Shown here piece after piece: positions 21,472 to 64,000 of a DNA stretch of 64,000 bases; position 1 is the first letter of the stretch, and each line of letters starts with the position of its first letter. The translations under genes were made by a program, and so were the position numbers. Source of the stretch: Escherichia phage humlepung; sequence record MN850564.1; one strand, written 5' to 3'. The notes below the pieces were generated by a model. It was given only the letters and a program-made list of their open reading frames with translations, searched no databases and had not been told where the DNA came from.

Positions 21472-21589
21472 AATGACCTCAAAGTTATATTAAATTTTGT
21501 ATTACGTTGAGTATAAAAATAAGCTATAACACCTGACTTGTCAACAGATTTTATAGCTTATTTGGCAGATTTTTTATAAGGCTACTGCC

Positions 21590-21830
21590 ATCCTTCCATA
21601 CTATACCCTACCAAACCGTACCTAACCTCACCCTACCGAACCGAACCGTACCTCATTAAAAGACCCTCTTTAAAGACCTTTTAAAAAGGTAAGTCTCATT
21701 TTAATGTAGCTGAGACTAACTACCCATACCAAACAGCACCGCACTATGCCTTACCCCACCTCACCGAGCCTCGCCCCACATCACTTAAAAACCCTTTTCA
21801 AAGACTCTTAAGTGATGTTGGTGAGTACCC
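21590..21830. repeat. G-poor degenerate tandem repeat (2 units of ~105 bp) in a 560-bp non-coding gap
   Basis: Two units of ACC/CCT-rich sequence each followed by TTAAAA(G/A)ACCCT...AAAGAC; hairpin GTCTCA...TGAGAC between them. Confidence 0.5.
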
Positions 21831-62444: not shown

Positions 62445-62573
62445 TCAATAACTTACAAAAAACTTTTAAAAAAGTGTTGACAATACCCCTTGACATTGGT
62501 AACTTTGTTCGAGGGGGTTTATCTAAAAGGGATTCACTTAAAAGATTCTTTATAGATAAGCTTAAAAAATTGC

Positions 62574-62663
62574 TTGCAATCAGCTATCAAAACAAGTAAA
62601 TTACTAATCAACGGGAGGGATGACCTCCCCACTAAATAAAATCCTTAAACTAGGAGAGTCAAA
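62574..62663 (+). promoter_or_regulatory. cassette type 1 (TTGCAA-N17-TAAATT, hairpin, leader)
   Basis: Hairpin GGGAGGGATGACCTCCCC; additional TTGACA motifs at 62475-62495 upstream. Confidence 0.6.
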
Positions 62664-63194
62664 ATGAACAAGTTTAAAGCTATCAACTTCATTCGTTCAA
62701 ATGCTGTAATGTCAAAACCTGTAAAAGACACATACGAATTTCGCTGCAATGGGGTACACTTTGCAACCATCACTAAGTCAGAAAACGGGGCTTATTACGT
62801 ACATCGTCGTAATGTTGCAACCGTTGTAGTCTCTCACTTTATGCAAGCTGTAGCGGAGTTATTACCGTTATTCTTAGAGATTTATCTAGGTGAGTGTAAA
62901 AACGTTCGTAACCACGTTAAAAACCTTTTAAACGGTTATAAAATGGCTTATGAACGTTCTATCAAGTCCTTGAACAAGTTCTATAAATCCCCTGTAAATA
63001 CTGTTTCAATGGCTTACACTGTAAGCGGTGAGTTGGTTAGCCTCTTCGAAGTAGAAGAAATTGAACTATATGACTCACGTCCTAGCGGTTACTCTAAGAC
63101 ACTGGGAGAAGGATTATCTTTCAATATCAAGAACTTAGAAAAAACTTTAAAAGATATTGAAAAAGATATTGACGAGACAATCAAAAGTCTGTAA
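62664..63194 (+). CDS. cassette gene L, hypothetical
   Basis: 176 aa. Confidence 0.5.
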   Translation: MNKFKAINFIRSNAVMSKPVKDTYEFRCNGVHFATITKSENGAYYVHRRNVATVVVSHFMQAVAELLPLFLEIYLGECKNVRNHVKNLLNGYKMAYERSIKSLNKFYKSPVNTVSMAYTVSGELVSLFEVEEIELYDSRPSGYSKTLGEGLSFNIKNLEKTLKDIEKDIDETIKSL

Positions 63195-63260
63195 ATTGTC
63201 AATCAACGGGGAGGGAATGACCTTCCCCACTAAATGAAGTCCTAAACTGGAGATTCTAAA
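63169..63260 (+). promoter_or_regulatory. cassette type 1 (TTGACG-N17-TAAATT, hairpin, leader); -35 lies inside the 3-prime end of gene L
   Basis: Hairpin GGGGAGGGAATGACCTTCCCC at 63208-63228. Confidence 0.6.
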
Positions 63261-63509
63261 ATGGCTACTATCCGCGCAACTGTTAACGAATTCGGCTTCT
63301 ACTCTCTGGACGTTAAATTTGACCTTGTAGGTACTGATAACACCTTTGAAATGGTGAAAGGCCTTATCAGCCAGACCATCAGTGACTACAACCCCTCTGA
63401 TGAATTCTGGAAAGAAACAAAACAGGAAGTTCTCAAAGAGGGTTATACATACCACTACTGGGGTGAAAAAATTGTCTCCCTGTACTACGACAAAAAAGGC
63501 ACTAACTAA
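63261..63509 (+). CDS. cassette gene M, hypothetical
   Basis: 82 aa; MATI N-terminus. Confidence 0.5.
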   Translation: MATIRATVNEFGFYSLDVKFDLVGTDNTFEMVKGLISQTISDYNPSDEFWKETKQEVLKEGYTYHYWGEKIVSLYYDKKGTN

Positions 63510-63547
63510 ACGCCGCAACGGGGCTAAATAGCCCCAGATACCTTTAC

Positions 63548-63575
63548 AGCCCCTTTCCCATAGGGGCTTTTTTAC
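63548..63575 (+). terminator. rho-independent terminator closing the cassette array
   Basis: AGCCCC...GGGGCT followed by T6; preceded by a type-2-like hairpin GGGGCTAAATAGCCCCAGATA. Confidence 0.55.
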
Positions 63576-64000
63576 GTCTTATCAAATCCCTTATACAACC
63601 CTTTCCCTTTCCTTTCCAGAATCTTATCAGACCTTAAAAAGCAATAACTCTATAGTCTACTCTATAGCCTTTTATCAAATCAACTTAAATATAAGCCCAT
63701 AACCCGAAAGGGAAGGGCAACCGTTTAAACGCTCTATAAAGCTCTATAACAGCCTTATCAACCTAACTTAAGGGATTGCATTAACTCACCCTAAAAAGCC
63801 CTTTATAAAGCTTCCCAGAGACTTAAAAGAATCTTATAAGGGTGTAAGCTTTATTATCTCGTTAGCTATCTTGTGAACTACTAAACAAGCCCCTTGATAG
63901 TAACTGAAAAGTATGTTATAGGGGCTTTAAAGTTACTTTGAAGTGGCTTAAAAGTTACGTAAATGCTAGCCCCCTTAACATTTTCTTAACAATTTCTTAA
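63576..64000. repeat. non-coding repeat-rich region (CTTATCA x5, CTCTATA x4, AAGTTAC x2)
   Basis: No ORF of 60 aa or more on either strand; short direct repeats and pyrimidine-rich tracts. Confidence 0.5.

Follow-up and report, generated by a model that had tools for sequence, protein, structure and literature searches.

The 64,000-nt window analysed here (i.e. the whole stretch of DNA examined, from Escherichia phage humlepung, MN850564.1) belongs to the Felixounavirus group (Felix O1-like myoviruses), and ends in a repeat-rich non-coding stretch (positions 63576-64000) which lies, as the original prediction had placed it, downstream of the early-gene cassette array. In annotated relatives the last plus-strand gene of this long array of small genes is an 82-aa ORF (ending at window position 63509), and the stretch follows both this gene and an intrinsic terminator (Table 1), whose stem and T run are kept in relatives and whose loop carries insertions in some of them. 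A megablast search with window positions 63000-64000 matched 253 phage records in GenBank, nearly all of them assigned to Felixounavirus or to its sister genus Mooglevirus; the best match was Escherichia phage garuso (99.6% identity across 63510-64000), and about 250 other records share 71-94% identity with the window over the same span. Since in the annotated relatives 1.6-1.8 kb lacking any annotated gene separates the 82-aa ORF from opposite-strand genes that face back towards it, the stretch is no short intergenic spacer and represents the first quarter of a long (~1.65 kb) ORF-free region between convergent gene blocks, which is conserved in more than 250 phage records (in the window itself the plus-strand genes stop at 63509). 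The claim that more than 420 bp lack any ORF of at least 60 aa was borne out: the gap covers 482 bp (63519-64000, cut by the window end) and is the largest such gap, on either strand, in the window (the second-largest measures 340 bp). The garuso homologue of 63532-64197 (L002 5548-6213; garuso L002 coordinates equal window coordinates minus 57984) contains no ORF of at least 20 aa wholly inside it, and in the non-coding region we found no periodicity or ORF pointing to coding. Hidden small genes were ruled out; the garuso ORFs of 21-35 aa found further on are not conserved features, and the hypothetical proteins annotated in the region by some records look spurious.

Table 1. Features at the right-hand end of the humlepung window (window coordinates; garuso coordinates are marked L002)
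Feature	Position	Strand	Basis
Stop codon of the last plus-strand early gene	63507-63509	+	
Conserved hairpin (GGGGCTAAATAGCCCC) just 3' of the last early gene's stop codon	63516-63535	+	Read from the sequence; 13 of 13 aligned junctions
Intrinsic terminator of the rightward early-gene array, AGCCCCT-loop-AGGGGCT + TTTTTT	63548-63574	+	Scan on garuso (L002 5564-5584) plus T run
C-rich, G-poor tract (C 26%, G 10%), including CCCTTTCCCTTTCCTTTCC at 63599-63617	63577-63826	+	Composition
Module 1: CTCTATA, 5 nt, CTCTATA, then TTATCAAATCAACTTAAAT	63648-63690	+	Nearly invariant in 13 junctions, including Mooglevirus
Module 2: CTCTATA, 3 nt, CTCTATA, then CTTATCAACCTAACTTAAGG	63732-63773	+	Conserved among aligned junctions
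Near-invariant block AGAGnCTTAAAAGAATCTTATAAGGGTGTAAGC	63817-63849	+	Alignment of 13 junctions, conservation profile
Boundary-proximal element: imperfect inverted repeat (63887-63911 / 63925-63949) and tandem AAAGTTAC-containing unit	63887-63968	+	
Predicted first 32 bp of the direct terminal repeat (GCCCCCTTAACATTTTCTTAACAATTTCTTAA…)	63969-64000	+	Homologous repeat starts in relatives

Several further observations concern the surroundings of the stretch. In front of each of the last early genes stands a near-identical cassette leader (62600-62660 and 63195-63260; caatcaacgg(g)gagggaatgacc(t)tccccactaaat), in which a GGGAGGG…CCTCCCC hairpin is found just upstream of the ribosome-binding site, and twin TTGACA boxes are present at 62478-62505. 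The second-largest ORF-free gap of the window (21472-21811, 340 bp) holds a strongly C-rich, ACC-rich run (…ccctaccaaaccgtacctaacctcaccctaccgaaccgaaccgtacctc… and …ccttaccccacctcaccgagcctcgccccacatcac…) between AT-rich DNA, and its strand-asymmetric composition resembles that of 63576-64000. ARAGORN detected no tRNA genes in the window (1-64000); as Felix O1-like genomes carry about 20 of them, the cluster must reside beyond the terminal repeat, in the part of the genome (roughly 22 kb) that the window does not cover, as it does in UAB_Phi87.

The architecture of the stretch is dominated by two 42-bp modules (with starts 84 bp apart, at 63648 and 63732), each composed of two CTCTATA copies 12 or 10 bp apart that are followed by TTATCAA-N3-4-AACTTAA. 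Downstream of these, the boundary-proximal element carries a AAAGTTAC-containing unit, present in 2-3 copies in most aligned relatives (i.e. its copy number varies), and ends in a conserved AAAAGTTACGTAAATGCTA (19 bp), which is nearly identical in 13 of 13 aligned relatives. The repeats listed in the original prediction were partly confirmed, in that the repeats and the ORF-free stretch are real and one count was wrong: the four CTCTATA copies (63648, 63660, 63732 and 63742, all on the + strand), the two AAGTTAC copies (63930 and 63952) and the pyrimidine-rich tract (CCCTTTCCCTTTCCTTTCC) were all recovered, and CTTATCA, said to occur five times, was found in only three exact copies (63578, 63623 and 63754). 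Its TTATCA core is present four times in the stretch (at these three sites and at 63672), and a further CTTATCA occurs at 63363, inside the preceding gene. With regard to the purine and pyrimidine tracts, we observed a 14-nt exact inverted match between TTCCCTTTCCTTTC (63603-63616, in the pyrimidine tract) and GAAAGGAAAGGGAA (garuso L002 6255-6268, inside the terminal repeat), 622 nt apart, and a third purine tract (GAAAGGGAAGGG) at 63706-63717. The pairing of the pyrimidine tract (63599-63617) with a purine tract at 63706-63718 was considered and rejected: it is not conserved, and its first arm is deleted in Mooglevirus.

The simplest explanation for such a region, namely a functionless, low-complexity spacer arisen by chance (or a decayed gene), could appeal to the fact that a 425-bp ORF-free stretch is not rare in DNA of 39% G+C, and that some of the two-copy repeats returned by the repeat finder are short. 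Against it, the stretch is part of the largest ORF-free gap of the window and lies within a 1.65-kb gap kept in more than 250 records, its conservation equals or exceeds that of the flanking genes, and it harbors 4 of the 7 CTCTATA copies of the whole 64 kb (both strands), where shuffled sequences predict about 0.06 per 425 bp (8.9 per window). The identity of the non-coding region between garuso and Mooglevirus Michonne amounts to 75% (58-72% for the adjoining genes), and in several 50-bp windows of the stretch 66-76% of the positions do not vary among 13 junctions; we therefore conclude that this DNA is under selection as DNA. Contradicted by both conservation and enrichment, the chance explanation (to which we accord a negligible probability) is excluded. 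A structured RNA was likewise sought and discarded: an Rfam scan of the whole garuso junction returned best E-values of 0.17 and 0.31 (far below the gathering scores), and RNAalifold on seven left flanks gave an unfavourable covariation term (+1.74), with compensatory change in 3 of 68 pairs.

The key to the stretch is provided by the ends of related genomes. The records of five relatives (SPJ41, ZX4221, NBEco004, ECP2307 and NBEco005) carry exact repeats at both ends (613, 591, 628, 592 and 651 bp, respectively), and these direct terminal repeats (DTRs) have identical edges and all start at one homologous base, which corresponds to window position 63969 (…AAAAGTTACGTAAATGCTA|GCCCCCTTAACATTTTC…). 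They begin with GCCCCCTTAACATTTTCTT… (preceded by …AAAAGTTACGTAAATGCTA) and finish with …GTTAAGGGCTACC (followed by AAGCAGATATACAT), so that their homologous edges read …ATGCTA|GCCCCCTTAACA… and …GTTAAGGGCTACC|AAGCAG…. More records open at the left DTR edge, or stop 547-613 bp (about one DTR length) past the homologue of 63969. Two of the five records, NBEco004 and NBEco005 (MN994498 and MN994499), are labelled circular although each has the repeat at its two termini. Around the boundary the sequence hardly differs among all 13 aligned junctions, and as the window reads …aaaagttacgtaaatgcta|gcccccttaacattttcttaacaatttcttaa at this point, the repeat should start at 63969 and the window should end 32 bp into it.

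An experimental anchor exists in UAB_Phi87, for which a 608-bp DTR was determined by Bal31 digestion and run-off sequencing, and printed in a supplementary figure as 5'-AACATTTTCTTAAC…GGGCTACCAA-3' (PMC4837284). We located the UAB_Phi87 ends via this figure (the GenBank record of the phage opens elsewhere), and the printed DTR, when aligned to its own record, spans +8 to +616 from the record-derived start, i.e. exactly the published 608 bp, which sets the experimental left edge at window position 63977. The experimental edges are thus 8 nt further in on the left, and 2 nt beyond on the right, in comparison to the record-derived ones. An in-silico SpeI digest of UAB_Phi87 opened at the mapped edges yielded terminal fragments of 2747 and 4435 bp, and the Bal31-sensitive SpeI bands are reported at 2819 and 4322 bp (PMC4837284); the agreement (72 and 113 bp apart, no other fragment pair being similar in size) is good but not exact. 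The UAB_Phi87 record (JN225449) has 87,603 bp, versus 87,669 bp in the paper (PMC4837284). Within the same group, a 581-bp DTR was obtained with PhageTerm for Pr103Blw (PMC8303462), and short terminal repeats were inferred for Felix O1 (PMC3185647).

As shown by homology to these relatives, the DTR of humlepung would start at 63969 (or at 63977, following the one experimental mapping), and the stretch is accordingly predicted to consist of a unique sub-terminal spacer (63577-63968) and the first 32 bp of the DTR. The three readings offered in the original prediction hence fared unequally: the packaging or terminal-repeat boundary gained support (from the five records for 63969 and from UAB_Phi87 for 63977), and the second origin and the promoter cluster, discussed below, did not. 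The boundary coincides with the very end of the interval, most of which is unique DNA just outside the repeat. A second copy of the region or of the DTR, sought elsewhere in the window as had been suggested, was not found there, as is to be expected with the other chromosome end falling outside the 64 kb. With respect to the Felixounavirus DTR (as typified by UAB_Phi87 and Pr103Blw) the last 32 bp of the window match the start of those repeats, the sequence is homologous and the position is also equal (between the early-gene array and the convergent gene block); we see no substantive difference, and regard the window as carrying the same element in another isolate.

The organisation of the wider junction (depicted here for garuso, unless otherwise stated) is markedly symmetrical. 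The DTR homologue (L002 5985-6575) contains 23 of the 30 TGTTAR motifs of the region, where about 2.9 would be expected in 1650 bp; the copies (TGTTAAG) are mostly spaced at 11 bp, and since the first three are inverted, the two DTR edges are inverted repeats of each other. In the window these appear as three CTTAACA copies in 11-bp phase (63974, 63985 and 63996, the third being cut by the window end), and both cut sites, when viewed from outside, read TGCTW|G…CCCTTAACAT. The far flank also contains CTCTATA, with inverted copies in the majority, and the GC skew is negative in the left flank (-0.45) and positive in the right one (+0.45 to +0.59). On the other side of the DTR, the terminator that closes the opposing gene block is succeeded by a mirror-image tract (C 25%, G 7.6% in the transcript sense), and the C/G ratios of the flanks (in the transcript sense) range from 3 to 13. 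In the complete UAB_Phi87 genome (87 kb), the junction region accounts for 15 of the 28 CTMTATA copies and for all three of the bins in which TGTTAR is densest. Furthermore, the compartments are kept in all 13 junctions (including two Mooglevirus genomes): a left flank with CTMTATA almost entirely on the + strand, a DTR with about 18 forward and 4 reverse TGTTAR copies, and a right flank with both motifs. A short palindrome, inserted as a segment of about 25-30 bp with GATTCGATAGAATC or variants of it, was noticed at differing junction positions in different phages, for example in the terminator loop of fKMPT1 (L019) and ZX4221 (L007), in REP8 (L015), in VpaE1 (L018) and, in SPJ41, right after the far edge of the DTR; its appearance suggests a small element that is mobile or prone to recombination, and no close copy of it is present in the window.

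As for the host-takeover promoter cluster that had been proposed to continue past the window, we regard it as very unlikely, either in this form or as one or more small non-coding RNA genes (possibly served by a phage-modified RNA polymerase) reading into the DTR. The TATA-rich words of the stretch (CTCTATAAAG, CTTTATAAAG and CTTATAAGG), which we take to recall loosely T4-type late promoters, and its high conservation without coding capacity would suit such an explanation. The consensus scan, however, found no sigma-70-like site in the stretch (homologous garuso L002 5592-5984), the first weak ones (9/12) being composed of TTAACA repeats that belong to the DTR; other genes of the window have hardly any CTCTATA upstream (3 copies elsewhere in the 64 kb), and for a non-coding RNA neither an Rfam family at threshold nor a favourable RNAalifold covariation term was obtained. 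Moreover, there is nothing downstream to express: in relatives the next 1.2 kb beyond 64000 is ORF-free (i.e. without conserved ORFs), and the genes that follow lie on the opposite strand, pointing towards the region.

The second origin also found no specific support in the stretch. Were a replication origin present, an initiator protein would use the repeats as iterons and DNA synthesis would begin within the stretch or beside it, a scenario compatible with the about 23 TGTTAR copies (mostly in 11-bp phase) that relatives carry in the DTR, with a 130-bp AT-rich segment (GC 0.285) just past the far DTR edge, and with the TTATCA cores, which by our own comparison loosely resemble the first bases of the DnaA box TTATCCACA. 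The first two of these features, however, lie beyond 64000, and the stretch itself is devoid of a TGTTAR array: the left flank has 0-1 TGTTAR copies (13 junctions), CTCTATA occurs in only two pairs, and no phased iterons were recognised. Every TTATCA copy has at least 2 mismatches to TTATCCACA and none fits TTWTNCACA; compared by eye with the IHF (WATCAANNNNTTR) and DnaA-box consensus sequences, none of the TTATCA words fits either. The GC content of 0.34-0.40 across the stretch reveals no AT-rich unwinding element, and no initiator gene is adjacent, the neighbours encoding small hypothetical proteins. In addition, the region is located between convergent transcription units, and the replication genes of UAB_Phi87 are found at a divergent junction about 36 kb away. 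The cumulative GC skew of the complete UAB_Phi87 genome shows no independent signal, and is uninformative as an origin test because it tracks gene orientation. On balance, we judge an origin at this place to be quite improbable, if somewhat less so than promoters or non-coding RNAs; in the wider region, with its iteron-like arrays and AT-rich segment, an origin is conceivable.

A further explanation, unlikely in our assessment and yet the least so of those that dispense with packaging, holds that the region is purely a transcription-insulating zone, formed by the intrinsic terminator and a Rho-dependent (rut-like) backstop. Rut sites are C-rich, G-poor and unstructured, and the terminator is indeed followed by such a composition (C 26% and G 10% over 250 nt, with C/G ratios of 7.7, 4.0 and 3.2 in the first three 78-nt windows of the tract), which exceeds the length of about 80 nt that we looked for after a transcription unit, and which is mirrored after the opposing terminator on the other flank. 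Composition alone, however, leaves unexplained the motifs that are invariant between genera (CTCTATAG…CTCTATA and AGAATCTTATAAGG), the near confinement of CTMTATA to this region in an 87-kb genome, and the invariant sequence abutting the cut site; the block-wise conservation of the stretch exceeds what a compositional rut site needs.

We return to packaging, and consider the stretch to be, probably, a DTR-adjacent spacer together with the start of the DTR, i.e. a cis-acting part of the genome junction as opposed to a gene or a promoter cluster. In replicating concatemers the ~1.65-kb non-coding region would form the genome-to-genome junction, and in the virion it would be split into the two chromosome ends, with the stretch bounded by the last early gene's terminator on one side and by the right-end repeat copy on the other. 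In phages with DTRs, one repeat copy is present between genomes in the concatemer, and the terminase has to recognise the junction and cut at each edge. By analogy with pacB/pacC in T7, the CTCTATA/TTATCAA modules, the AAAGTTAC element, the inverted CTCTATA copies of the far side, the phased TGTTAAG arrays and the shared cut-site sequence would together, as the most likely interpretation, bring the packaging machinery (the terminase, an accessory DNA-binding protein, or both) into place for cuts at both repeat edges. Given cut sites arranged in inverted symmetry, phased TGTTAAG copies, mirrored CTCTATA modules and the invariant 19 bp next to the cut, the stretch may therefore be regarded as one arm of a bipartite recognition/cleavage signal. 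We know of no protein that binds CTCTATA, TTATCAA or TGTTAAG. According to PMC4837284, the Felix O1-like group had no recognised small terminase subunit, and the literature searched contained no functional study of the DTR flanks.

The flanks may also have a second role, suggested by their composition: the first ~250 nt and their mirror image would yield C-rich, G-poor RNA in the sense of the incoming transcription, so providing a Rho-type backstop after the intrinsic terminator that would keep convergent read-through out of the junction. The packaging and insulation roles are mutually compatible. As a tentative extension, which we consider possible and somewhat doubtful, the flanks might constitute a mirror-symmetric cis element, in which CTCTATA/TTATCAA modules, carried by C-rich strands and oriented towards the repeat from either side (~600 bp apart), stop convergent transcription and dock a putative DNA-binding partner of the large terminase, thereby specifying the two staggered cuts.

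The closest functional parallel is found in the concatemer junction of T7/T3, which likewise has a short, exact, non-permuted terminal repeat derived from a single concatemer copy. In T7 the terminal repeat measures 160 bp, short-repeat arrays flank it, and a polymerase pause or terminator is present at the junction; the Felixounavirus repeat is longer (about 600 bp). There is no sequence similarity between the T7/T3 and humlepung junctions, and while the genes on both sides of the latter are transcribed inward, those of T7 read away from the left end. The cis signals of T7, recognised by the terminase, are located at and beside the repeat, its Pac signal being composed of PacB and PacC (PMC9860248). 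A 7-8-bp word repeated at helical-turn spacing beside the cleavage site, as seen in the TGTTAAG arrays, is suggestive of the sites of lambda, SPP1 and P1, and the CTCTATA pairs (with 10- and 12-bp spacing) would fit that pattern to a lesser degree. The lambda cosB R sites, SPP1 pacL/pacR and the P1 pac hexamers are terminase sites made of phased short repeats, in systems that rely on cohesive ends or headful packaging and not on exact DTRs. The injection-stop region of T5 is also repeat-rich non-coding DNA near a chromosome end, beside early genes with strong host-type promoters; it is palindrome-rich, lies inside a 10-kb terminal repeat next to the pre-early genes, and is not known to resemble the humlepung stretch in sequence. 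We know of no report of two-step DNA entry for Felix O1-like phages.

The DTRs of Felix O1-like phages are already published, one of them with its sequence (UAB_Phi87), and as the window holds the same published boundary, features of this kind are already known. What has been published describes the repeat and does not extend to an analysis of the adjoining unique DNA, of which the stretch mostly consists, and the organisation of these unique flanks appears to be undescribed in the literature searched. The stretch is thus a reasonable target for packaging studies, and one that will be unsurprising to the specialist. A DTR start at 63969 would fix the true right end of the humlepung chromosome, a position that matters for genome orientation, annotation and phage-engineering designs; because the early-gene array abuts the right end, the boundary also bears on the question of which genes are the first to enter the cell. 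Phages of the Felix O1-like group find wide use in the typing and biocontrol of Salmonella and E. coli. For this group, the conserved mirror-symmetric motif arrays offer concrete targets for mutagenesis, and if they prove to be determinants of packaging specificity, they could be used for the construction of transducing particles or contained phages, as has been the case with the T7 Pac signal.
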